Virus record (IMG/VR): IMGVR_UViG_2713896897_000004
Coordinates: 1 to 9,910 of that record
Direction: 5' to 3' (one strand)
Source of the DNA: a virus
Lineage: Duplodnaviria > Heunggongvirae > Uroviricota > Caudoviricetes
Length of the DNA stretch: 9,910 bases
How positions within the stretch are numbered: the stretch's first letter is position 1; every line of letters begins with the position of its first letter. The notes under the pieces were generated by a model that was given only the letters and a program-made list of their open reading frames with translations, was not told the origin of the DNA and did not search any database. A program made the translations under genes and the position numbers. Shown here one piece after another: positions 1 through 9,910 of the stretch.

Positions 1-196
1 CTGTTACTGGTCGATTTAAGTCAACCTTTACCGCTGATTCGTGGAACAGATACTCTCTTCCATCCTTAACCGGAGGAGGGAATATCCTGCACTCGCGTAC
101 CCATCGACGAACTGTTTCAAGGCTTCTTGGGCGTCGCTGGCGTGCGTTCCACTCCTGAAGTGTCAAGTACATCGCAAAGTCTCCGCAATTACACGC

Positions 197-219
197 AAGA
201 AAAGCCGCATTGATGCGGC
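197..219 (-). terminator. Putative rho-independent terminator after the 114-aa gene
   Basis: Plus strand aagaaaa-GCCGCA-ttga-TGCGGC: a 6-bp GC-rich stem with 4-nt loop. On the minus strand the hairpin is followed by TTTTCTT, about 56 nt downstream of the stop at 278. Confidence 0.5.
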
Positions 220-277
220 AATGGTAGGTCTGGATATCTTGAGAAATGAACAGGCCTCATTGAGTGTGAGGCTGTGG

Positions 278-622
278 TTAGTCCTTGCGTAGCTCGCTAA
301 TTCTTCTGTAAGTCTCTGGTGCTTTGTTTCCGTGTATCTTCATTTCAGACTTCAACAGAGCGACGAGGGAATCCCATTCGTTGAGGATGCCTTTGAATGC
401 CGGAACGCGCTTTGCAACCTTGTCGAATGAATCTCTGATTTCTGGAATCTGCTCAACAAGTGCAACGCATCGCCGGAAGTCTGCTGCGTCATGTGGAGCG
501 CCGAAGTGATGACCATAGATATTCTTTTTCAGTCCACATGCGATTGAGGCAAGAGTTGCGCTACTGATGCCAACATCGCCAGTCGATTGCCATTTCAAAA
601 CCTTCATAGCCAAATCTGACAT
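278..622 (-). CDS. Hypothetical protein (114 aa), distal pL-operon accessory gene
   Basis: ATG at 622 with GGAGA 7 nt upstream; intact ORF followed by the terminator hairpin. No family recognised. Confidence 0.55.
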   Translation of the reverse strand: MSDLAMKVLKWQSTGDVGISSATLASIACGLKKNIYGHHFGAPHDAADFRRCVALVEQIPEIRDSFDKVAKRVPAFKGILNEWDSLVALLKSEMKIHGNKAPETYRRISELRKD

Positions 623-780
623 TTCTTGTCTCCATAAAACAAAACCCGCCGTAGCGAGTTCAGATAAAAGAAATCCCCGCGAGTGCGAGGATTGTTATTG
701 TCTTTTCTTCGTGCATTTGTCGCACTTTCGGCACCATCCAGATAGGCACATCCGTCCGCAATTAACACATATAGGCCACA

Positions 781-1059
781 TCATTTTTCCTCTTTTGGTT
801 TATGAATCTGAATGGTCATGCCGCTTTGAGTGGTGACTACAATGACAGAACCAGGCTGAAGACTGTTAAGATTGAATGCTTCGTAAAACGAATCCAAGGC
901 CAGCGTTTTTTTATTCTTTCGGTTCCACCAACGCCATCCCTTGCTACAGGCTACACTGACAATCCACTGCCCACTCCTGTAAGCCATATAAAACCAGATG
1001 AGCAAAACCTGAAGGAAGGCCATCCAGTCAATAATCGTATATTTCGCGAAGGAGTCCAT
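781..1059 (-). CDS. Small predicted membrane protein (92 aa)
   Basis: ATG at 1059 overlaps the upstream gene's TGA (TGATG); AGGAGGTG 5 nt upstream. N-terminal hydrophobic segment IIDWMAFLQVLLIWFYMAY followed by a basic stretch. The ORF track's longer 141-aa version starts inside the upstream gene and is rejected. Confidence 0.55.
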   Translation of the reverse strand: MDSFAKYTIIDWMAFLQVLLIWFYMAYRSGQWIVSVACSKGWRWWNRKNKKTLALDSFYEAFNLNSLQPGSVIVVTTQSGMTIQIHKPKEEK

Positions 1060-1838
1060 CAATTCACCTCCTGCGGCGGTTCTGGTAGCGGCATCCAGAA
1101 CAAGACGTTCCCTAACCACGATAAAGTGCCGTCGCTCAACTCCACGTATTCCCCTTGTACCTGTCCTGCCATATACTCGCCGTGCTTTGAATAAATTAAA
1201 ACCCAATCGTCTTGAGCGGGAATTCGCTCACTACAGCTTATCCAACTATCCGGAGTTACCGGAGTTGGTCCATCGAATTCGGGCATGTCAGGACCTTTTC
1301 TGATAGCTTTAGCCAGCTCCAGCGGGTCATCGTAAAGCCAGTCGCCAGTTTGTGGGTGATTTGCTTCTGCAAGCTGCGCAGCCCATTCAAGACCATCTTT
1401 TTGACCTTGGAGATAATCAAGCGGCAACTCTTCATGATTACTTGCAGGTTCGGCACTATGAAGCATGGCGGCGCGGCAGGCGTTCCAGCCAGCTGTTCGC
1501 CCAAGCGCGTAAACTTCAGATGGATCAAGATAATCAATGTCATGCCCGTCCTCATCGTCGTTCTCAGGTAATGCAGCAGGTACTACTGGTACTGGAGGGG
1601 CGGCATAAACAGGAATAACGTCCGATTGATCTTTATTGCTTTCATCCGTCAAAGCCCAGAATAATTTTCCGGCCGGATGTTTGAAAATATAAGCAACTGG
1701 CTCTGCTTCCAGTGATGCCAGTGCAATTCGTGCCAGTTCTTCCGCTTCTTCTGCTGGCAGTACAACGTTGCTACCAGGTCCGTATGTTTCGCGCCACTGC
1801 TGGATTGTCAGCAGGCGTTCTTTGGTAATAGTGGTCAT
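1059..1838 (-). CDS. Phage accessory protein with C-terminal DUF551-like domain (259 aa)
   Basis: ATG at 1838 with AAGGTGA 8 nt upstream. The C-terminal W/P-rich segment (DSWISCSERIP...WVLIY...WLGNVLFWMPLPEPP) resembles the phage DUF551 domain as I recall it. Confidence 0.65.
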   Translation of the reverse strand: MTTITKERLLTIQQWRETYGPGSNVVLPAEEAEELARIALASLEAEPVAYIFKHPAGKLFWALTDESNKDQSDVIPVYAAPPVPVVPAALPENDDEDGHDIDYLDPSEVYALGRTAGWNACRAAMLHSAEPASNHEELPLDYLQGQKDGLEWAAQLAEANHPQTGDWLYDDPLELAKAIRKGPDMPEFDGPTPVTPDSWISCSERIPAQDDWVLIYSKHGEYMAGQVQGEYVELSDGTLSWLGNVLFWMPLPEPPQEVN

Positions 1839-1840
1839 AG

Positions 1841-2032
1841 CTATTTCACCTTAATCTCAACATTTCGCAGCTTTAGCTCTACTGGCAGGTCTGACTTTCC
1901 GGTTAATGCTAATGCGAGATTTTCTGGAGTAATGAGAGCAGTTATTGTTTTCCCCCTCGCCAGACGAATAATCATTCGTATCTCGCAATCGTCACATGCT
2001 CCCGGTCGAACAATTGAGATTTGTCCGTTCAT
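1841..2032 (-). CDS. Hypothetical small protein (63 aa)
   Basis: ATG at 2032 lies 1 nt after the upstream TGA, with AAGGAG 6-7 nt upstream. The track's 90-aa version begins inside the upstream gene. Confidence 0.5.
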   Translation of the reverse strand: MNGQISIVRPGACDDCEIRMIIRLARGKTITALITPENLALALTGKSDLPVELKLRNVEIKVK

Positions 2033-2033
2033 C

Positions 2034-2702
2034 TCACTCTCCTTTGATGCGAATGCCTGCGGCGCGTGGCACATTAACTTCCACGATGCGCACTGTTGGT
2101 TTGTACATCTCAATCGCTGTCAACCAGTCAGCTCCTGTCATGCGCTTTTCCGCATCGCCATTAGTCCACTGAACCGGTACACCAATAGCCTTCATCGCGA
2201 TTTCTATTTCCCCGGCAATGGCGCTTTTTCCGCAACCAGTAAAACCAGAAACAACGACAAGAACTTCACCTTTGGCTGGTTTTATTTCCCGTGCTTCCAG
2301 TTCTGCAATGCGCTTACTTCCATCCGAGATAACACCTTCGTAATACTCACGCTGCTCGTTGAGTTTTGATTTTGCTGCTTCAAGCTCAACGCGCAGCTTC
2401 CCAACCGTAAGCGCAATATCCTCGTTCTCCTGGTCGCGGCGTTTGATGTATTGCTGGTTTCTTTCCAGCTCATCCAGCAGCGCCTGCACTACTTCAGGGT
2501 TGAAAGCTGCGATATAACGAGCGTTGTTCTCTGCGTTTTTCTGTCCATCAAAGCCGGTCCATTTGATAACGTCTTCACATCGTTTATCACCAGGTGTATG
2601 CACCGCATATGTACCAGTACCAGACGAAATAAATGCGACCCATTCACCCTGTGTTGCCTTTTCTGCCGCATCACGCAGTGCCTGATAGTCAATTTTGCTC
2701 AT
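2034..2702 (-). CDS. Ead/Ea22-like phage accessory protein (222 aa)
   Basis: ATG at 2702 overlaps the upstream stop (ATGA). The N-terminus MSKIDYQALRDAAEKATQGEW matches my recollection of the Ead/Ea22-like N-terminal signature; the central region is coiled-coil-like. Confidence 0.55.
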   Translation of the reverse strand: MSKIDYQALRDAAEKATQGEWVAFISSGTGTYAVHTPGDKRCEDVIKWTGFDGQKNAENNARYIAAFNPEVVQALLDELERNQQYIKRRDQENEDIALTVGKLRVELEAAKSKLNEQREYYEGVISDGSKRIAELEAREIKPAKGEVLVVVSGFTGCGKSAIAGEIEIAMKAIGVPVQWTNGDAEKRMTGADWLTAIEMYKPTVRIVEVNVPRAAGIRIKGE

Positions 2703-2932
2703 TGTGCCTCCTCGATTTCGTCCCATTCCACCCAGGCATTCTCTCCATCAGCATCGATTTCACCTTTGTGACCGCATTTGGAACAGACAGCCTCATCACC
2801 CGCCCACAAAGAATCTTTGGTTACCGACCATCCTGTTACCTTGGCTTTGCCGTGCTGGCACTTAGGGCAATCATCAAGCCATTCGACTTCGACTGTTGAA
2901 GGACCAAATCCATGTTCAGTTCGGATGCTCAT
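2699..2932 (-). CDS. Small zinc-ribbon protein (77 aa)
   Basis: ATG at 2932 overlaps the upstream TGA (ATGA). Two Cys pairs, CPKC and CSKC, give a CxxC...CxxC zinc-ribbon pattern. Confidence 0.55.
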   Translation of the reverse strand: MSIRTEHGFGPSTVEVEWLDDCPKCQHGKAKVTGWSVTKDSLWAGDEAVCSKCGHKGEIDADGENAWVEWDEIEEAQ

Positions 2933-3474
2933 AACTGAACTCCTTTGCGAAGCTGCTCCGCACAATGCAGCAGGGCGTCCGTCGCTTCTTTCACCGTAAC
3001 GATGTCGCCATCGTCCAGCCTGGCAACCGTCGCGTCCTTAACGAACACCGAGCAAAGGTCATTAAACGCCTGCGCCCGTACTTCAGCCAAGAAAGCGTCG
3101 GTGGCTGTGGTTTCGATATCGTTAATTTCAGGAAGAATCTCTTCCCATGTAGCGATATCGCCATTCAAATGCCATCCGGCAATTCCACTGGAGTTATCCG
3201 CAACACTCCGAACGGCTTCAATAGTTTCATGCATTGCCGCATTCTCCGCAGCCAGCACCGAAAACTTCTCGTGTGCCAACTTAACAGCCGCATCAGCCTG
3301 CTTAATTGACTCAATCGCTTTCTGGTGGTCTTCGGACAGAGCCGAAATCTTGGCCTCCGCTGCAGCAAATTTACGCACCAGATATTCAGCGTTTGTTTCG
3401 TTAAGCTTTAAATCTCGTGGGATGCATTTACCTTTCAGGAATCCATCCATCTCAATTAGTGACATTTGTTTCAT
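2929..3474 (-). CDS. Hypothetical protein (181 aa)
   Basis: ATG at 3474 (second in-frame ATG at 3465), with the stop overlapping the next start. No family recognised. Confidence 0.55.
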
Positions 3475-3651
3475 TTCTTCCCACTCCGCAACATCGCATT
3501 CAGATATTTGTTTTGATTCACTGATGGAAAAGAATTTCTCTTAAGCAATTCCTCTCTCGATGGCATTGGCTTTACGCGTTAGAGAATAATCATTTCTGCC
3601 GGAAGAATGCCGGGATTGTATGCAAGTCCTCTCATGGTAAATTCCTCTTTG

Positions 3652-3966
3652 TTAATTTATTCGTATGCCTGCTCTTTCTTCATCGAGTTTTTTTAGCTTG
3701 TATCGCATAGCTCTTACTGAATAAATTGAGCGGCAGGTTGCAATTGCTATTTCTTCCGCGGTGAACTTACCGAAAAGTGATACTTCGGCTCTTGTCCATC
3801 GTCTTCCACGAAGTCGGCTAACAATGTCAGCGCCAATCCTTGTTGCTTTCGCCATAACTGCTTTTTCAGTCCTTTCCAGTTTTTCAGCGATAACTTCAAC
3901 TGGCATTGTCGCCGCTACTTCGCGCAAGAAATCGACTTCCCATTTCTCCCATGGAGTCTTTTTCAT
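3652..3966 (-). CDS. Hypothetical protein (104 aa), possible DNA-binding protein with two W-x3-E-V-x2-L repeats
   Basis: ATG at 3966, 11 nt after the Gp157-like stop. Internal repeat WEKWEVDFLREV / RRWTRAEVSLFGKF resembles tandem Myb/SANT-like helices. Weak SD. Confidence 0.5.
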   Translation of the reverse strand: MKKTPWEKWEVDFLREVAATMPVEVIAEKLERTEKAVMAKATRIGADIVSRLRGRRWTRAEVSLFGKFTAEEIAIATCRSIYSVRAMRYKLKKLDEERAGIRIN

Positions 3967-3977
3967 AGGCGATACCG

Positions 3978-4460
3978 TTATTTGATAAGAAGTGAAGGTT
4001 TCCCAACTTTGAGTTGAGCGCCGGGGATATTTATTCCTGCTTTTAGTTGGTGTTTGATTGCCAACTTGTCGGCTTTAATTGTTGTTTCAAACTCAACGTA
4101 TTCAGGAGGAAGGGCGCTTGAGTCGATGATTTCTACAGTTTCTGACGGTTTGCGGATTGTTACCTGGTGAATACCTGCTCGCATCTTTTTCTTGCCAACC
4201 ATTTCAAGCGATGACGCTATATATGATTTGATGCTGTCAATCTTATTTTGAATTACTGCGGCTCGTTCATTCAGTGACTTTGCCTCTTCCTTGAGGCGTT
4301 CAGCATAACCAGATTCATTTTTAATAATGGCGAGAAGTTGCTCTATTTTATCGGTAAATTCTCCTTCCATGCCTTCTATTGTGTCAGCAATCATCTCTGG
4401 TTCTAAATCTGAATCCATCAATTTTGCGTATTCATTGGCTATTTCATATAGTTTGCTCAC
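3978..4460 (-). CDS. Sipho_Gp157-like coiled-coil protein (RecT-associated)
   Basis: Likely start is GTG at 4460 with GGAGG 6 nt upstream; the track's start at 4466 is a TTG. N-terminal LYEIANEYAKL...IADTIEGMEGE...LKEEAKSLNERAA resembles the Gp157 family pattern. Confidence 0.6.
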   Translation of the reverse strand: MSKLYEIANEYAKLMDSDLEPEMIADTIEGMEGEFTDKIEQLLAIIKNESGYAERLKEEAKSLNERAAVIQNKIDSIKSYIASSLEMVGKKKMRAGIHQVTIRKPSETVEIIDSSALPPEYVEFETTIKADKLAIKHQLKAGINIPGAQLKVGKPSLLIK

Positions 4461-5355
4461 TGGCAACCTCCAGTTTCGCTTTGCATTCCATGTAAATGGC
4501 TTGTACGTTCTGCTGCAATTTCATTCCAGATGTCAGGCGATATGCTTCTGCAAAATATCGCTTCAAATCATCCATGTTTTCTGCCTGAGCCATTTCATCA
4601 CAAAGAAGTTGTGCTTTATCCATTATTTCCTGCTGGTGTTTCCGTTCATCTTCGCGGATATCTTCCTCTGATTTGTGCGGCATAACTGGTTCAGTCCACA
4701 CACCTTCTTCTTCGTTTAGTACGTGAATAGCACTATCAAGACGTAATGCCTTAGGCCAATACTTGCTTGCACGCTTTACGACCGTCTTTCGCGCCATCTC
4801 ATTCCAGTGATTTACCCATGGTCCTTTATCGCTGAATGCTGCCTTGCTTGTTTTCCTTACAGCCTCAATTTCAGCCAGACTCATCTCTTCCGTTAGATAA
4901 TCACCTGCTGGCGTCTTAACTGTGCAGTAAACGCCAACGATATCACCACGATCACCGAAGGCGGTGTATTTATGGGTTGGTGCTTTATCAAGCCCGTTTG
5001 ACTCATAGGTATCGTTAGCATGAACAAGTTTTGCCTGACCCCATGAGATAACACCAGACTCCATTGCAATATGGAGCAATCCCATATAGCTGATATCAAG
5101 GCAAACCATGCCATCGCGCGGAACCAGATAAGCCAGTTTGCTTGCAGGGTTTAAAGTGATGCCGATCGCCGCAACGTTGATGATAGCGTTCTGTGCGCTG
5201 GTTGGATTTGCCAGTGCTGTTTTAGCCAGGTAATCGTTTTTCTGGAAATACTGAATTGCAAACTGGCTTTCCTTAGCCCATGTCACCGTCTGTTCAGTCA
5301 ATACTCCGCAGAATAACTGCTCTTGCTGTTTAACGAATTCAACGATATTGCTCAT
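4444..5355 (-). CDS. recT: RecT-family single-strand annealing recombinase (303 aa)
   Basis: Motif GPWVNHWNEMARKTVVKRASKYWP matches the RecT core (GPWVTHWEEMAKKTAIRRLFKYLP in Rac RecT, as recalled). ATG at 5355 with GGAGAA 6 nt upstream; ATGA overlap with the upstream gene. Confidence 0.85.
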   Translation of the reverse strand: MSNIVEFVKQQEQLFCGVLTEQTVTWAKESQFAIQYFQKNDYLAKTALANPTSAQNAIINVAAIGITLNPASKLAYLVPRDGMVCLDISYMGLLHIAMESGVISWGQAKLVHANDTYESNGLDKAPTHKYTAFGDRGDIVGVYCTVKTPAGDYLTEEMSLAEIEAVRKTSKAAFSDKGPWVNHWNEMARKTVVKRASKYWPKALRLDSAIHVLNEEEGVWTEPVMPHKSEEDIREDERKHQQEIMDKAQLLCDEMAQAENMDDLKRYFAEAYRLTSGMKLQQNVQAIYMECKAKLEVASEQTI

Positions 5356-5663
5356 GCAGCTTCTCCATAAATATGTCTGCGTTTGAATATTGCGAAGGCA
5401 TATTCAGCCTTAACTCTTTCGGTTATTGCATCCCAGAACCATTCAGCGGCTTTTTCCTGATAGTTACAGTCATCATCTTCCAGCCAGTCGATAGCGTCCT
5501 TAGTGTGTTCATCTGGTTTATATGAGCGAAGCATTTCGCTTATTGGGTCGCAACGTTTGCAGAGGCGATCAACTTCACTGTTGATTCGCTCGTAATCTTC
5601 ATCAGTAAAACTTGCGATTATTTGCGATATTTCACGCTTATCATTCAGAGTCAGAATCATCAT
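5352..5663 (-). CDS. Hypothetical acidic protein (103 aa) in the gam-equivalent slot
   Basis: ATG at 5663 with AGGAG upstream. About 24 Asp/Glu against 15 Lys/Arg. Sits immediately upstream of recT. Confidence 0.6.
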   Translation of the reverse strand: MMILTLNDKREISQIIASFTDEDYERINSEVDRLCKRCDPISEMLRSYKPDEHTKDAIDWLEDDDCNYQEKAAEWFWDAITERVKAEYAFAIFKRRHIYGEAA

Positions 5664-5744
5664 CTTTCTCCTGTTCTTTGTGCTGATTGAGCATTTTGTT
5701 CATCTGACGAATGAATTCTTCGTCTTACCAGTTATCTGTAAAAC

Positions 5745-5897
5745 TCATTTCCTGCGATACCACGGAAGGTTGATAGCTGATTTCATCGCTTTATTTGCTT
5801 CAAGCCACATTTTGGAATCACCAATAAATCTGGCTATTACTGCTTTGTTTTGTGCTGCACGAAGCATCTGGTGATTGATGGCTATTTCATTGCGCAT
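5745..5897 (-). CDS. Kil-like small protein (50 aa), candidate host cell-division inhibitor
   Basis: Not in the ORF track; found by hand translation: MRNEIAINHQMLRAAQNKAVIARFIGDSKMWLEANKAMKSAINLPWYRRK. ATG at 5897 with GGAGG 4 nt upstream. It overlaps the cIII 3' end by 16 nt in another frame, the arrangement I recall for cIII/kil in lambda. Confidence 0.4.
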   Translation of the reverse strand: MRNEIAINHQMLRAAQNKAVIARFIGDSKMWLEANKAMKSAINLPWYRRK

Positions 5898-6016
5898 AAC
5901 GCCTCCAGTTGTTTCTTTGCTGCTCTGATTAATTGTTTAACTCGGCGTGATAATTCAGATTCGTGCGGGTAGAAAGCGGACATGACGCCGCTACCCGCGA
6001 GCTGAAAGTGCATCAT
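5882..6016 (-). CDS. cIII: cIII-like protein (44 aa), FtsH (HflB) protease inhibitor
   Basis: ATG-ATG at 6016/6013 with AAGGAG 6 nt upstream. PHESELSRRVKQLIRAAKKQLEAL aligns with the lambda CIII core PSESLLERITRKLRDGWKRLIDIL. The track's 79-aa version starts upstream of a terminator hairpin. Confidence 0.6.
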   Translation of the reverse strand: MMHFQLAGSGVMSAFYPHESELSRRVKQLIRAAKKQLEALCAMK

Positions 6017-6082
6017 GGGTAACTCCTTATATTTGATTGCATAACGAAAACGCCTCGAGTGAAGCGTTATTGGTATGCATAT

Positions 6083-6106
6083 AAAAAAGCCCTCACACTG
6101 GAGGGC
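6083..6106 (-). terminator. Rho-independent terminator (tL-type) just upstream of cIII
   Basis: Plus strand aaaaaa-GCCCTC-acactg-GAGGGC: on the minus strand a 6-bp GC stem is followed by TTTTTTAT. Confidence 0.5.
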
Positions 6107-6168
6107 AAAGAAGATTTCCAATAATCAGAACAAGTCGGCTCCTGTTTAGTTACGAGCGACATTGCTCC

Positions 6169-6196
6169 GTGTATTCACTCGTTGGAATGAATACAC
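6169..6196. repeat. Inverted repeat with 9-bp arms (GTGTATTCA-N10-TGAATACAC)
   Basis: Perfect 9-bp arms read directly from the sequence; followed on the plus strand by a T-rich tract. Function unknown. Confidence 0.4.
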
Positions 6197-6223
6197 AGTG
6201 CTGTGTTTATTCTGTTGTTTATG

Positions 6224-6251
6224 CCAAAAATAAAGGCCGACTATGCGGCCT
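6224..6251 (-). terminator. Rho-independent terminator (tL1-like) after the membrane-protein gene
   Basis: Plus strand ccaaaaataaa-AGGCCG-actatg-CGGCCT: on the minus strand a 6-bp stem is followed by TTTATTTTTGG, right after the TAA at 6256. Confidence 0.55.
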
Positions 6252-6255
6252 GAAA

Positions 6256-6705
6256 TTACTTAACCAATGATGCTGCATATTCGATAAGGTAAAGCTTTGG
6301 GGCCAGCAAAATTTTTAACCATGTCATATTGGTTACTACAGCAATAATAAAGCTTACCCACAGAACAAAAACTGCAGCTAATGGTAAGATTAGAAAACTA
6401 ATCTCACCGTTACTTTCCCAAATCATAGTCGGTTTGTATTTAGTCTTCCCCTTATCCCATGACCATCCTTCATCATCGAACTTACCAATTTCAACTTTTT
6501 GGTACTGTTTCTTCATAAACCAGAAAACCAGCGGGATTGTTAAAATGGCTATTAATGTTTTAATCAGACTGTCAACCATATTCCATAGCAGCAACTGATG
6601 AACAACATCAGGAATCTGTGCCTGGCTAAATGAGACAGCTGTGTCTATTCCATTACTGGCTTTTTGCAATAGTTCTATGAGAATCTTATTTGCCTGTTCT
6701 TCCAT
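6256..6705 (-). CDS. Two-TM inner-membrane protein (149 aa), putative superinfection-exclusion protein
   Basis: ATG at 6705 with GAGGTGA 5 nt upstream, overlapping the N stop. Two hydrophobic helices (LIKTLIAILTIPLVFWFM and ISFLILPLAAVFVLWVSFIIAVV). It sits immediately downstream of N, as sieB does in lambda and P22; the assignment is by position and topology only. Confidence 0.65.
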   Translation of the reverse strand: MEEQANKILIELLQKASNGIDTAVSFSQAQIPDVVHQLLLWNMVDSLIKTLIAILTIPLVFWFMKKQYQKVEIGKFDDEGWSWDKGKTKYKPTMIWESNGEISFLILPLAAVFVLWVSFIIAVVTNMTWLKILLAPKLYLIEYAASLVK

Positions 6706-6713
6706 ATATCACC

Positions 6714-7049
6714 TCAAATAAGTGGTTTGCTGCCTAATTTCATTTTCTGGCGACCAACACAAGTCACCCCCATTTCACTGCGTGGCTTGCGGTAGTAAAT
6801 ACGGTTCTGTTTACGCTCGACTTCTTCTGCCTTCTTGCAGCGAAGGCTTCCGAGTGATATTGCTTTTTCAGAAAGGCTTAAACGCTTTCTTGGGGCCTCC
6901 TGAACAGGTTCCTCACTGTCTGTGCCGAAGATAGAATCAATGATGTTACAGATAGCATCACGCTCAATAGCAAGCTTTCTGCGCCGCTCATGACGGCGAG
7001 TTTTGGCATTTCCTGCAAATGTTGATTTTCCGTACACGATTACCGTCAT
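6714..7049 (-). CDS. N: N-type transcription antitermination protein (111 aa)
   Basis: From ATG 7049 (GAGGA 8 nt upstream), residues 13-30 read GNAKTRRHERRRKLAIER, matching the P22 N arginine-rich motif as I recall it. The C-terminus YYRKPRSEMGVTCVGRQKMKLGSKPLI parallels lambda N's WYSKPGERGITCSGRQKIKGKSIPLI. The track's 139-aa ORF begins at a GTG at 7133 in the leader. Confidence 0.85.
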   Translation of the reverse strand: MTVIVYGKSTFAGNAKTRRHERRRKLAIERDAICNIIDSIFGTDSEEPVQEAPRKRLSLSEKAISLGSLRCKKAEEVERKQNRIYYRKPRSEMGVTCVGRQKMKLGSKPLI

Positions 7050-7140
7050 GATGTTTTCCTCATGTGAAATGGCTTTGGTGGTGATGCGCCAGATGCTGAT
7101 CTTCTGGTTGCTGTCGTTGCAGCTGCAATTCACATCACCG

Positions 7141-7159
7141 CCAAACCCATCTCGTTTGG
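7141..7159 (-). promoter_or_regulatory. Hairpin in the N leader (CCAAAC-N7-GTTTGG)
   Basis: A 6-bp inverted repeat between boxB and the N start; it could structure the leader, as the RNase III site does in the lambda N leader. Confidence 0.3.
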
Positions 7160-7168
7160 TATCTGTTT

Positions 7169-7202
7169 GCGCTTTGTCAGCGCCCCATCGAAGTTAAAGA
7201 GC
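7169..7202 (-). promoter_or_regulatory. nutL site: boxA plus boxB hairpin
   Basis: On the minus strand, GCTCTTTAAC (boxA consensus CGCTCTTTA) is followed after 9 nt by GCGCTGACAAAGCGC, a 5-bp stem with GACAA pentaloop, identical to the P22 boxB as I recall it. Confidence 0.7.
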
Positions 7203-7248
7203 CTGCCAATCTGTTCCGTTTAGCTTCCAGCTTCCTGCTGACGTGACA

Positions 7249-7294
7249 ATAATGAACCAATAGTTCGATATTATCAAGAACTATTGGTACGAAA
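7249..7294 (-). promoter_or_regulatory. Putative pL promoter with overlapping operator-like inverted repeat (OL)
   Basis: Minus-strand -35 TTGATA (7277..7272) and -10 CATTAT (7254..7249) with a 17-nt spacer, about 40 nt upstream of boxA. A perfect 10-bp inverted repeat CCAATAGTTC-N11-GAACTATTGG (7257-7287) overlaps the -35. GAACTATTGGTACGAAA (7278-7294) partly resembles the OR site. Confidence 0.35.
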
Positions 7295-7457
7295 TTTTTG
7301 TGATTTATTAATGCAGCGAGATATAATTTTGATATATAAGGAAATTTATTTTTGTAAATGCTGCAGATTGGTCTGTAGTTGGAGGGGGTATTGCTGGTGA
7401 GTTGGTTCGCGGTTTACCACATTTGCGGCTATTAAATATGGGAGGGCGATCGTGAGG

Positions 7458-7487
7458 CAAAGAAAACCCGGCTCGGTGGCCGGGTTT
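7458..7487 (-). terminator. Rho-independent terminator (tImm-like) after the 348-aa gene
   Basis: Plus strand AAACCCGGC-tcggtg-GCCGGGTTT: on the minus strand a 9-bp stem is followed by TTTTCTTTG, 9 nt after the stop at 7496. Confidence 0.7.
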
Positions 7488-7495
7488 GGAGTGCA

Positions 7496-8542
7496 TCACT
7501 CTGGTTCGCTGGGGAATATATTTATCAATTGCCCTGTTGAAATGTGTCCATTTTCTACAACCTCTAGGTATGAAATTTCAACAGTTGATTCTTTGGCTAC
7601 AGCATTCAAAAACTCAAGAAGCTCATCAGTAGATGTTATGTCGGCTGAGGTTTTTATGGTGAAAGATTCACCATTTGAAACCCTTGTGACGTCAATATTT
7701 ATGTCCTGATTTGTTTCTCCCGAGCGACGAACGCCCGTGACATAAAAGTTATCTCTTCTAGTTTCCTTTTTTCGATCAATTGATTGCCTTTGGTTTAAGG
7801 TATTCAACTGTTCTCTATTTACCACTCTCTGACCAATTGTTACCTTCTCAACTGACGAGTCTTGAGCAAGCTTTTTAAGCAACTTGCTTTTACCATCCTC
7901 GCCGTGAGCCAGAACCTCTCTGCTAATGTTTGTTTGACCGCTAATCAACAACTTGAGCACATTGTCTTGTGCTTCGTTTACCGCTTTGGTGCTTTTTTCC
8001 ACCAATTGCACCTGAGAATCTTGGTCATGTCGCTGTGTTTCGTAGTACTCATTGATCCACTTATAGCCTACCGTGCTGGCAGCTAAGACGATAGCGGCGA
8101 CGGCGCATAGTGCTTGCCTTCCTGTCATTTTGCCTATCGCTTGAGTTAACACTGTCACCACTCCGTTTACAATCGGATCTGAGTCACCATCCGCTTGGCT
8201 TGAGCCTTCGCTTATTCGGTAGACAATATCCAGCAAACCTTTCTCTGCATCTTTTAGCTTCTGCCGATTATGAGTGCTGTGACTGACTACCGTAAATGCT
8301 TTTTGTATTTCATGCGTAAGCTCTGCCATACCAAAAAGCATTGACGCAGTCAATGAAGAATTATATCTATTTGGATCGCCTTTTACATTAATATTGATCT
8401 TTGGCCATCCACTGAAAACTACGCTAGGGAATGTGAAGTCGCTTGAGTCGATATCCTTCCTTCCGAGCATTTCTGTTACAAAAGATACAAAGTCGTCTTC
8501 TGACTTGATAACATATTGTGCAGGTTGATCAATCACTGACAT
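7496..8542 (-). CDS. Uncharacterised 348-aa single-pass membrane protein in the rexAB-equivalent slot; candidate prophage exclusion or abortive-infection protein
   Basis: ATG at 8542 with AAGGA 7 nt upstream, 76 nt after the cI stop with no terminator between. One central hydrophobic helix (ALCAVAAIVLAASTVGYKWI) flanked by soluble domains of about 140 and 185 aa. Hand-counted GC is about 35-40% against about 48-50% in cI and recT. No motif I can assign. Confidence 0.8.
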   Translation of the reverse strand: MSVIDQPAQYVIKSEDDFVSFVTEMLGRKDIDSSDFTFPSVVFSGWPKININVKGDPNRYNSSLTASMLFGMAELTHEIQKAFTVVSHSTHNRQKLKDAEKGLLDIVYRISEGSSQADGDSDPIVNGVVTVLTQAIGKMTGRQALCAVAAIVLAASTVGYKWINEYYETQRHDQDSQVQLVEKSTKAVNEAQDNVLKLLISGQTNISREVLAHGEDGKSKLLKKLAQDSSVEKVTIGQRVVNREQLNTLNQRQSIDRKKETRRDNFYVTGVRRSGETNQDINIDVTRVSNGESFTIKTSADITSTDELLEFLNAVAKESTVEISYLEVVENGHISTGQLINIFPSEPE

Positions 8543-8618
8543 TCTTAATCCTTAACATCCATTCCTATCACCCAAACGTCTCTTTAGGCCACTGACTATC
8601 AGCTATGTGACGATGAAG

Positions 8619-9326
8619 TCACGAATTTTTCAGCCACTCCCTTGCCTCGATGTCATCCAGATGGCGAGATTGCTTCAGAATACCAGCCACATACTCCACC
8701 TTTGCTACTTGATGATAAGGCAACGTTATAGGTCTGTGGTCCTGGTTAATGCTTGTAAATTGGTATTCTCCATCTCTGTCATAGCCAAGAACCTTAATCA
8801 TGTTGTGTCCTTCAACGGTTCTGACAAACACCTCATCACCCGGGAATACTTTGGTGTTAGGCTCAATGAGTACATATTCTCCTGATTTTATTCTGGGCCA
8901 CATGCTGTCTCCTTTCACACGAAGACCAAAGGCATCTGGATCATCGCTATAAATTTTGAGCCACCCATCGCGCTCTTCGGTCATCTCGATGGCACCATCA
9001 ACACCAAGAATTGCCTCACCAACCACGCGCACTAACCCTTTTTTTAATTTGCCAACAAATGAAAGAGTATCTTCATCATTCGCTCCATTTAACGAAGTGC
9101 CGTGCTGAAGCCAAACAACATCAACGTTTAGAAATTTCGCAAGCGCATTCATTTTTTCCTGACGCGGTAAAGACTCAGCATTAAACCATTTGCTAACGCC
9201 TTTGGACGAAAGAGAAAGGGCACGGGCTATAGCCATCCCCCTACCATGTTCATCAAGACCAGCTTCTTTACAGGCTTGCGCTAGCCGCTGGGCGAATTCT
9301 TTGCGCACTTTTTCATTCTGAACCAT
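8619..9326 (-). CDS. cI: CI-type prophage repressor (HTH plus S24 LexA-like peptidase domain), 235 aa
   Basis: N-terminal HTH (RGMAIARALSLSSKGVSKWFN) and C-terminal S24 motifs (GDSMWP serine, MIKVL lysine). Divergent from cro across an operator region; the ATG at 9326 abuts an operator palindrome. Confidence 0.9.
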   Translation of the reverse strand: MVQNEKVRKEFAQRLAQACKEAGLDEHGRGMAIARALSLSSKGVSKWFNAESLPRQEKMNALAKFLNVDVVWLQHGTSLNGANDEDTLSFVGKLKKGLVRVVGEAILGVDGAIEMTEERDGWLKIYSDDPDAFGLRVKGDSMWPRIKSGEYVLIEPNTKVFPGDEVFVRTVEGHNMIKVLGYDRDGEYQFTSINQDHRPITLPYHQVAKVEYVAGILKQSRHLDDIEAREWLKNS

Positions 9327-9404
9327 GAGTACGATACTAAAGCACTTGCAAAAACTTTCAGTTCAACCATAATACGTACTGAAAGTACGAAAAAGGATAT
9401 TCCT
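9327..9404. promoter_or_regulatory. OR region: divergent PRM/PR with three palindromic operator-like sites
   Basis: Sites AGTACGATACT (9328-9338), AACTTTCAGTT (9353-9363) and CGTACTGAAAGTACG (9375-9389). Candidate PR is -35 TTGCAA (9346-9351) and -10 CATAAT (9368-9373) with a 16-nt spacer; the cro SD AAGGA is at 9393-9397. Confidence 0.65.
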
Positions 9405-9632
9405 ATGCAAAATCTTGATGAGCCGATTAAAGGTGTCGGCATCCCTGAAGTTGCGAAGGCTTGTGGAGTTAGCGAAAGGGCTGTCTATAAGTGGCTCAAA
9501 AACGGCTTCCTCCCTAAGACTGAGTTTTTTGGGAAAACTAAATACGCATCAAAAATCGAAGAGATTTCTGGTGGCAAATATCAAGCAAGCGAAATGCTTG
9601 AAATAAGCAAAAAGAACCTTCTGGCTGCATAA
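9405..9632 (+). CDS. cro: Cro-type repressor (75 aa)
   Basis: Small HTH protein (GIPEVAKACGVSERAVYKWLKNG) divergent from cI, with SD AAGGA 7 nt upstream. Confidence 0.85.
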   Translation: MQNLDEPIKGVGIPEVAKACGVSERAVYKWLKNGFLPKTEFFGKTKYASKIEEISGGKYQASEMLEISKKNLLAA

Positions 9633-9639
9633 GTAACAC

Positions 9640-9674
9640 CGCTCTTTATCAATCTGCACCGCCGACAACGCGGT
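9640..9674 (+). promoter_or_regulatory. nutR-like site: boxA plus boxB-like hairpin
   Basis: CGCTCTTTA (9640-9648) is followed after 9 nt by ACCGC-CGACAAC-GCGGT (9658-9674), a 5-bp stem whose loop contains GACAA, between cro and cII. Confidence 0.55.
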
Positions 9675-9738
9675 AACTAATTAAGCTCTCATCGAAAGAT
9701 GGGGATTAGTGATTATTTACCTATGGAAATAGTAAGAA

Positions 9739-9910
9739 ATGGAACAAACAAGTTACAGCAAACTATCACAGCGCGACGTTGATCGCGCAGAAACAGATTT
9801 ACTCATCAACCTGTCAACGCTTACACAGCGCGGTCTGGCAAAGATGATTGGCTGTCATGAATCGAAGATAAGCAGAACGGACTGGAGATTTATTGCTTCG
9901 GTCTTGTGTG
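9739..9910 (+). CDS. cII: CII-like transcriptional activator (partial, runs off the window end)
   Basis: Hand translation from ATG 9739 gives MEQTSYSKLSQRDVDRAETDLLINLSTLTQRGLAKMIGCHESKISRTDWRFIASVLC..., whose HTH region parallels lambda CII (ESALLNKIAMLGTEKTAEAVGVDKSQISRW). Absent from the ORF track because there is no stop in the window. Confidence 0.7.
   Translation, partial: MEQTSYSKLSQRDVDRAETDLLINLSTLTQRGLAKMIGCHESKISRTDWRFIASVLC

Follow-up and report, generated by a model that had tools for sequence, protein, structure and literature searches.

The gene examined here is best compared with accessory genes that lie beside the repressors of two temperate phages. The lambda Rex system comprises two genes, encoding the cytoplasmic protein RexA and a separate membrane protein, RexB, which is reported to be an ion channel (PMC8585504). 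BstA, an abortive-infection protein of the Salmonella prophage BTP1, is encoded by a gene 3' of cI that is highly expressed in lysogeny and has its own Rho-independent terminator; bstA and rexAB share one site, and mosaic diversity is known to concentrate between cI and N (PMC8585504). We analysed 9,910 nucleotides of a member of the Caudoviricetes, positions 1-9,910 of record IMGVR_UViG_2713896897_000004 (hereafter the window), in which an open reading frame (ORF) of 348 amino acids, a member of the family PHROG 6191, takes the place of rexA and rexB. We suggest that the ORF is best explained as a horizontally exchanged, single-gene cargo of the rexAB slot whose product is a lysogen-expressed exclusion or defence protein of the cell envelope, and we put the probability of this reading at about 0.45. 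The features that define the locus are the following.

7,496-8,542, minus strand: the ORF, 348 amino acids, taken from the ORF list; PHROG 6191 member
8,549-8,553, minus strand: ribosome-binding site AAGGA, 6 nucleotides 5' of the ATG of the ORF, read from the sequence
8,568-8,594, minus strand: upstream slot linker of 27 nucleotides, CAGTGGCCTAAAGAGACGTTTGGGTGA, which reads QWPKETFG* and is a remnant of the 3' end of a lambda-type cI
7,458-7,487, minus strand: intrinsic terminator directly 3' of the ORF stop, identified from its fold and its match to lambda; this is the downstream slot linker
7,456-8,594, minus strand: mobile cassette consisting of a 52-nucleotide leader with the ribosome-binding site, the ORF and the terminator; identity between prophages is confined to this span

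When prophages with the same gene and another repressor were aligned, together with prophages that have the same repressor and other cargo, two short linker sequences proved common to all loci, whatever the repressor or cargo. Where the repressor is lambda-like, the upstream linker forms the end of the cI gene (…SQWPEETFG*). In the window it sits past the true stop of a different, 235-residue repressor, and we therefore regard it as a fossil of an earlier recombination. Positions 8,554-8,598 of the window are 87% identical to lambda 37,214-37,257, the 3' end of cI, and positions 7,444-7,486 are 93% identical to lambda 35,784-35,826, the hairpin right after rexB; the same hairpin closes every alternative cargo that was compared. 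Since the ORF lies between boundaries homologous to those of lambda, it replaces rexA-rexB. A first-pass annotation of this DNA had placed the gene where lambda carries these two genes, and we now consider that position proven by homology of the sequences on both sides. With RexA and RexB the locus shares the slot, the flanking sequences on both sides (the 3' end of cI and the terminator that follows rexB) and, by prediction, a membrane component.

The signals around the gene are also as first described. A spacer of 76 nucleotides separates the cI stop (TGA, 8,619-8,621) from the ATG of the ORF (8,540-8,542) and includes its own Shine-Dalgarno sequence, the AAGGA listed above. Within this spacer a terminator scan of the gene strand found none, the fold was unremarkable against shuffled sequences (z -0.56), a U-tract is absent, and a promoter scan found no consensus promoter. 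The terminator that follows the ORF, before a pL-like promoter, has a G+C-rich stem of 9 bp (AAACCCGGC/GCCGGGUUU), a loop of 6 nucleotides and the tail UUCUUUG, and is strong (free energy -17.9 kcal/mol, z -3.6). Because both slot linkers are homologous to lambda, analogy makes transcription of the ORF together with cI from PRM the natural interpretation, and, since the slot is identical to that of RexA/RexB, a shared PRM/PRE transcript and expression in the lysogen may be presumed. In a lysogen, the PRM transcript of cI, its presumed source being the 235-residue repressor, should run through the ORF and end at the hairpin, and the ORF would be transcribed from PRE during the establishment of lysogeny.

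Sequence comparison shows that the cassette itself moves as a unit among prophages whose repressors differ. Phage phi458 and 18 complete E. coli genomes carry it at 98.8-98.9% identity; there it comes after two other repressors of the LexA family, and outside it the phi458 and E. coli sequences are unrelated to the window. The cassette at about 99% identity was found after at least four types of repressor (the 235-residue cI of the window, WP_001299796, WP_096216393 and a PhiR12-type cI, the last with a near-identical gene in IMG/VR prophages). A copy of the ORF with 89% identity is preceded by a 70%-divergent cI, homologues with 43-63% identity come after further repressor types, and relatives with about 25% identity lie directly after cI in the temperate E. 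coli phages mEp332 and PhiR12_1 to PhiR12_5. Recurrence next to unrelated repressors had been named at the outset as a test of the proposal, and this is what was seen. The exact 348-residue protein occurs in 233 index blocks of public assemblies, and the ORF is under purifying selection (ratio of nonsynonymous to synonymous substitution rates, dN/dS, of 0.04 against an 87%-identical copy). A search for literature naming WP_001272876 or the PV3405xx accessions found none, and the phi458 paper does not discuss Orf11.

The mosaic boundaries of the cassette prove that it was acquired separately, as had been proposed from base composition. The composition is itself weak evidence: the G+C content had been estimated by hand as 35-40% against 48-50% in cI and recT, and measurement gave 41.9% in the ORF, 45.3% in cI and 45.1% in recT (44.8% in the whole window, and 38.7% to 48.0% in 300-nucleotide windows within the ORF), a dip of only about 3 points that says little on its own about foreign origin. 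In the manner of a moron, the ORF is variably present between fixed flanks with sharp mosaic boundaries, and it has a terminator, although this hairpin is shared by the slot and not private to the ORF.

Other genomes with the window's own repressor carry different cargo in this place: a protein of 126 amino acids, a P63C-domain protein, a DUF2335 protein, or a Clp-fold serine protease with a small ORF. We therefore took a census with the upstream linker as the probe, counting a locus as a slot where this linker and the hairpin lay within 7 kb of each other. Such slots were found at 68 of the 120 IMG/VR loci among the matches listed (L071-L190), to which all counts that follow refer, and they held 17 distinct cargo architectures of 343-2,089 bp; one slot was empty, having no ORF of 50 or more amino acids, and the PHROG 6191 family filled four. 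Representative cargo proteins were scanned against PADLOC with lambda RexA and RexB as positive controls. A kinase cargo in eight slots matched the validated defence family PD-T4-6 (E 1e-37), the cargo of two slots matched the PADLOC candidate PDC-M63B (E 7.5e-45), a protein of a different cargo in three slots matched PDC-M63A (E 2e-10), and the commonest cargo, in 16 slots, matched PDC-M24 weakly (E 3e-4 and 6e-7). On these sequence matches, the slot is enriched in cargo that resembles known or candidate defence models.

The commonest cargo is a two-gene unit, encoding proteins of 119-146 and 250-258 amino acids. Further cargo includes a ParA-like ATPase of 340 amino acids and a protein of 285 amino acids without known function that matches PADLOC HEC-09 weakly (E 2e-4). 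The serine/threonine kinase cargo, which we take to be like Stk of 933W, shares the linker-bounded slot with the ORF; it is a kinase-domain protein without similarity to it. BstA is likewise a single-gene cargo after a prophage repressor; it localises to sites of phage DNA replication (PMC8585504), whereas the product of the ORF has a predicted membrane anchor. In kind, then, the ORF is another cargo of a known hotspot.

It is not a form of Rex. The hhalign probability of homology was 0.08% for RexA and 0.38% for RexB, and the PADLOC Rex models, which recovered the lambda proteins with E-values of 9e-110 and 8.6e-61, did not match the ORF, in agreement with the first impression that it resembles neither the cytoplasmic RexA nor a multi-pass RexB. 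Instead of a sensor and a separate multi-pass protein, the slot contains one ORF with one hydrophobic segment. Its match to phrog_6191, a family of unknown function, has an E-value of 6.5e-36 and spans residues 8-342 (profile positions 6-331 of 338), and all 80 of the 80 aligned family members match PHROG 6191 as well (best E 1.2e-106). A profile search of 1.84 billion representatives returned 916 clusters at E <=1e-3 and 541 at <=1e-10, clusters of the family being defined at 50% identity; full-length matches have about 300-400 residues, mostly 320-350. The close homologues (36-98% identity) come from Enterobacterales and are all called 'hypothetical protein', and the named members, from Escherichia, Yersinia, Serratia, Xenorhabdus, Pantoea, Aeromonas, Shewanella, Pseudoalteromonas and one Pasteurella phage, are all from Gammaproteobacteria.

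Neither the ORF nor the family members scanned matched a Pfam family above threshold or an NCBIfam model, and PDB sequences held no relative except for a composition-driven match. Nearly all matches of a second, word-indexed protein search with broad alignment were close relatives. In BFVD the sole full-length match was an uncharacterised protein of Leptospira phage LE1 (E 1.7e-4), and the remaining named matches were largely oligonucleotide/oligosaccharide-binding (OB) folds or uncharacterised proteins. Matches to DUF6495, BrxC, an HP1 holin family, a PriA equivalog and the like were set aside as noise, being below cut-off and inconsistent across members, and HepS and GiPD474 are unrelated proteins. 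The 39 members with divergent C-terminal halves show no recognisable swapped domain, and their consensus retains the OB layout. The gene had at first been put forward as a candidate novel defence or exclusion gene. It has no characterised relative in the Pfam, NCBIfam, PADLOC or PDB-sequence searches, and to that extent the description stands; the family already exists as PHROG 6191, so the word 'novel' needs care.

The protein can be divided into four segments, as follows.

8,123-8,542, minus strand: N-terminal domain, residues 1-140, the best-conserved part
8,057-8,116, minus strand: single hydrophobic helix, residues ~143-162, QALCAVAAIVLAASTVGYKW, located by Kyte-Doolittle hydropathy
7,778-8,056, minus strand: helical stalk or linker, residues 163-255, from the structural model, low confidence
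7,514-7,777, minus strand: C-terminal OB-fold, residues ~256-343, with the order b1-b2-b3-helix-b4-b5; acidic, from the structural model

The N-terminal domain is marked by the motifs F-x-GWP-x3-INVKG-x3-RY-x-SSLT-x-SMLFGM and LDIVY-x-ISEGSS, and its median identity to remote members is 27%, as against 15-16% for the stalk and the OB domain. In the model, the stalk is formed by helices at residues 160-171, 186-201 and 205-226, with a predicted local distance difference test score (pLDDT) of 32-37 over residues 161-190 and 56-72 thereafter. Searches with models of the separate soluble domains had been recommended, and they had a divided outcome: the C-terminal model is a five-stranded barrel with the strand order of an OB-fold and structural matches to such folds, and the N-terminal domain found no match. 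The predicted OB-fold resembles CusF/SilF or toxin B-subunits. It has a net charge of -7 (family median -2), and, being acidic, is less likely to bind nucleic acid in the plain sense than to bind a protein or ligand.

A central transmembrane helix had been proposed between two soluble domains. There is one hydrophobic segment and no second one in the ORF, as proposed; the helix is marginal, with a Kyte-Doolittle peak of 1.72 in a 19-residue window against the usual threshold of 1.6, and the topology around it is a deduction from several indicators. The family as a whole gives a median peak of 1.73, with 56 of 80 members at or above 1.6 and no member showing a second segment. These values leave some room for a soluble cytoplasmic protein in which the hydrophobic helix is buried or oligomerising and the OB-fold binds phage nucleic acid or a phage protein, since 24 of the 80 members fall below the threshold. 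We think such a protein quite improbable, because the segment is hydrophobic in all subfamilies despite its variable sequence, because the asymmetry of flanking charge and a one-sided belt of tryptophan and tyrosine are typical of membrane interfaces, and because the OB domain is acidic. The helix is a probable membrane anchor.

Its orientation is suggested by three indicators. Among 136 members the net charge of the N-terminal flank averages +0.64 and that of the C-terminal flank -0.42, with the N-terminal side the more positive in 82 members as against 44 (these are related sequences, which inflates the p-value), and Trp and Tyr are concentrated at the helix's C-terminal end (1.55 as against 0.06 per member). 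Moreover, a domain of 140 residues without a signal peptide is expected to remain in the cytoplasm. Net flank charge, the aromatic belt and the missing signal peptide together favour, weakly, a bitopic topology with the N-terminus in and the C-terminus out, in which the N-terminal domain is probably cytoplasmic and the stalk and predicted OB-fold are periplasmic. Counts of lysine and arginine alone (35 as against 30) do not orient the helix.

Two named protein types were considered for this architecture and rejected. GenBank labels the relatives in mEp332 and PhiR12 as 'T2SS GspM containing protein' (T2SS, type II secretion system), and GspM (PF04612) does have a similar C-terminal layout, with a membrane helix, a periplasmic helical segment and a small alpha/beta domain. 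The match of the ORF to PF04612 is confined to residues 278-330 and lies below cut-off (E 0.075; 13.7 bits against 27.8 bits), the labelled relatives do not match PF04612, and the modelled domain is an OB-fold. A MotB-like stator was suggested by a match to C. jejuni MotB (E 6e-4), which covers the end of the helix and a K/E-rich linker and is an artefact of composition; the helix of the ORF has no Asp, and there is no MotA-like partner gene.

How might such a protein act? In the envelope-exclusion reading that we prefer, the product would be a bitopic inner-membrane protein with a conserved cytoplasmic N-terminal domain of about 140 residues, one membrane helix, and a helical stalk and acidic OB-fold exposed to the periplasm. 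Expressed in the lysogen, it would act at the cell envelope against superinfecting phages, the variable stalk and OB module meeting either a component of the incoming phage that delivers the genome or a host factor of the inner membrane, so that entry is blocked. The combination of a conserved cytoplasmic domain and a more variable periplasmic module leads us to rank an entry block first and an abortive response at the membrane a close second.

In an abortive response the N-terminal domain would act as a cytoplasmic sensor of some phage product, and the oligomerised helix and stalk would depolarise or permeabilise the inner membrane, making the ORF a one-protein analogue of RexA plus RexB. The slot is that of RexAB, in which RexA is reported to trigger RexB, an ion channel of the membrane (PMC8585504). 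Small residues abound in the helix (AVAAIVLAAS), as would suit packing of helix against helix, the predicted stalk helices could drive oligomerisation, and a conserved N-terminal domain with a variable remainder fits a division into sensor and effector. Nevertheless, we regard abortive infection as rather unlikely: each chain has a single, marginal helix and does not resemble RexB (hhalign probability 0.4%), and the OB domain, lying across the membrane, has no obvious role in the scheme.

The entry-block model has precedents. HK97 gp15, P22 SieA and T4 Imm are inner-membrane proteins, expressed in the lysogen or early in infection, that block genome entry. They share our preferred model; to our knowledge they are small and have neither a large cytoplasmic domain nor an OB-fold. 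The Pfam scan gave no match of the ORF to SieB (PF14163). SNIPE, or PD-lambda-1, is a membrane-anchored nuclease that acts during genome injection, with an N-terminal anchor and with its DUF4041 and GIY-YIG domains in the cytoplasm (PMC13190303). The two share the idea of an inner-membrane protein with a single pass, placed at the point of entry of phage genomes, but the ORF has neither DUF4041 nor GIY-YIG, and its likely orientation is the opposite. Where the architecture predicted here can be compared, the build of the ORF product differs from that of every characterised protein of exclusion or defence that we considered.

Relatives of the ORF elsewhere also bear on its role. One from Pantoea is placed between cI and N, and one lies in an immI-like region. 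Others are found at prophage edges: between icd and int/xis, past tail-fibre genes adjoining DinI, and beside smpB. Such accessory-gene positions speak against a part in lytic growth of the phage itself, and their variety against reliance on any one repressor. The family gene stands alone in most of the contexts examined, with a small ORF 3' on the same strand in a few.

Four of these contexts deserve separate mention. In L066 (3,488-5,005) a family member lies within a P2/Mu-like baseplate gene cluster, directly after an ORF of 112 amino acids whose N-terminus, MIRPLLAVSLLISAQC, resembles a lipoprotein signal; the pair may represent a tandem of accessory genes directed at the envelope. A remote member with 21% identity, in L028 (6,001-7,014; Logan SRR23287145 contig), stands at the end of a small integrative element with genes for an integrase, an AlpA-like helix-turn-helix protein, an AAA_25 primase-like protein, a small terminase, an S78 protease and a major capsid protein, and by this gene content the element looks like a capsid-forming phage satellite. 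In L053 (2,353-2,697) and L054 (5,057-5,401) one and the same ORF of 114 amino acids lies 52 nucleotides 3' of the homologue (47% identity) on the same strand, beside the smpB attachment site, and could be its partner gene in this branch of the family. The homologue in L043 has a HicB-like ORF on its 3' side instead of the 114-residue ORF.

Of the roles considered, exclusion or defence is the most likely one, judged only from position and association, and we consider the defence reading reasonable and now better motivated. Several points weigh against it, to which the marginal helix and the equivocal orientation counts given above should be added. The first-pass annotation had recommended a search of defence databases, and this found nothing: the protein has no match among the 5,027 models of PADLOC-DB v2.0.0, and the 80 family members gave scattered single matches with E-values above 1e-4. 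The Pfam and NCBIfam scans of the ORF and the members revealed no catalytic or known sensor domain, and the N-terminal domain, modelled separately, has no fold relative in the structure search. The AlphaFold2 model, made from an alignment of 23 sequences, is of medium quality (pLDDT 64, predicted template modelling score 0.47). For copies at the ends of prophages a simple promoter scan gave no clear promoter and was uninformative. One copy has decayed, being cut at about residue 68 beside a fragment of an IS3-type transposase, and another has a frameshift near its 3' end. Moreover, the accessory slots and genes of prophages also serve functions other than defence, namely virulence, fitness or regulation.

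Decayed or mis-started copies were noted at L050 (1,580-2,416) and L047 (3,060-4,105) and among the proteins P0005, P0006 and P0044, and several database entries of 279-281 amino acids start at Met68.

The ORF could therefore be a lysogeny gene without an anti-phage role, either a modifier of the envelope or of host fitness or a tuner of the lysis-lysogeny switch or of induction. The bor and lom genes of lambda are modifiers of the first sort, and accessory slots hold many genes that are not for defence. The periplasmic OB-fold, if it is like CusF/SilF or the toxin B-subunits, might have a small ligand or a component of the envelope as its binding partner, and the missing PADLOC match is as expected here. 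RexA and RexB are themselves reported to assist the transition from lysogenic to lytic growth (Thomason 2021, as cited in PMC12315714). On the other side, the relatives that lie far from any repressor, in P2/Mu-like prophages and the satellite-like element, argue against a role in one switch; cargo with matches to defence models, known or candidate, is also enriched in the slot. We regard a role of this kind as a serious rival, though somewhat unlikely.

A bolder form of the envelope-exclusion reading would extend it to the family. PHROG 6191 would then be a new anti-phage family, widespread in temperate phages and satellites and acting through a single gene. Its members would be type II bitopic inner-membrane proteins in which a fast-evolving periplasmic module of stalk and OB-fold intercepts genome delivery or a host factor and a conserved cytoplasmic N-terminal domain of new fold executes or anchors the block. 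We hold this to be doubtful at present; if true, it would add a mechanistically new class to the classical cargo of the rex slot.

The remaining features of the window that adjoin the slot are the following.

8,619-9,326, minus strand: cI-type repressor, 235 amino acids, with HTH_3 and Peptidase_S24 domains (PF00717 E 4.4e-16, PF01381 E 1.2e-5)
9,405-9,632: cro, divergent from cI
7,249-7,277, minus strand: pL-like promoter, TTGATA-17-CATTAT, a consensus match only, 3' of the terminator and 5' of N
6,714-7,049, minus strand: antiterminator N gene, 111 amino acids from Met29 of the listed ORF (PF25694 E 3.6e-26)

N is also 111 amino acids long in the gene calls of sister prophages, and it marks the far side of the slot. 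An inverted repeat, GTGAC-N6-GTCAC at 8,606-8,623, spans the cI stop; it has no U-tract and is kept in all loci with the same repressor. Directly 3' of N lies an ORF of 149 amino acids (6,256-6,705, minus strand) with two hydrophobic segments and the lowest G+C content of the window (36.9%). It belongs to PHROG 3054, of unknown function (E 2.3e-59), and matched nothing in the Pfam and PADLOC scans; in the sister prophage L020 its position is taken by a SieB-family gene on the opposite strand. This ORF may be a second lysogeny or exclusion cargo. In the sister prophages L016, L021 and L023, which are otherwise collinear with the window, an IS3-family transposase that is absent from the window lies between kil and recT (about 9,160-10,390).

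The site beside the prophage repressor is the home of RexAB, BstA and a defence kinase, and the two conserved linkers make it a true cassette slot; the same linkers can serve as anchors for a systematic harvest and census of its cargo. The family found there is large, uniform in length at about 320-350 amino acids, and without annotation in any library searched. SNIPE shows that a single-pass protein at the site of injection is a real strategy of defence (PMC13190303). If the ORF encodes an exclusion protein, its build, a cytoplasmic domain, one helix and a periplasmic OB-fold, would be unlike that of any characterised system; if it does not, it would still rank among the more frequent unexplained genes whose expression in lysogens is probably constitutive.

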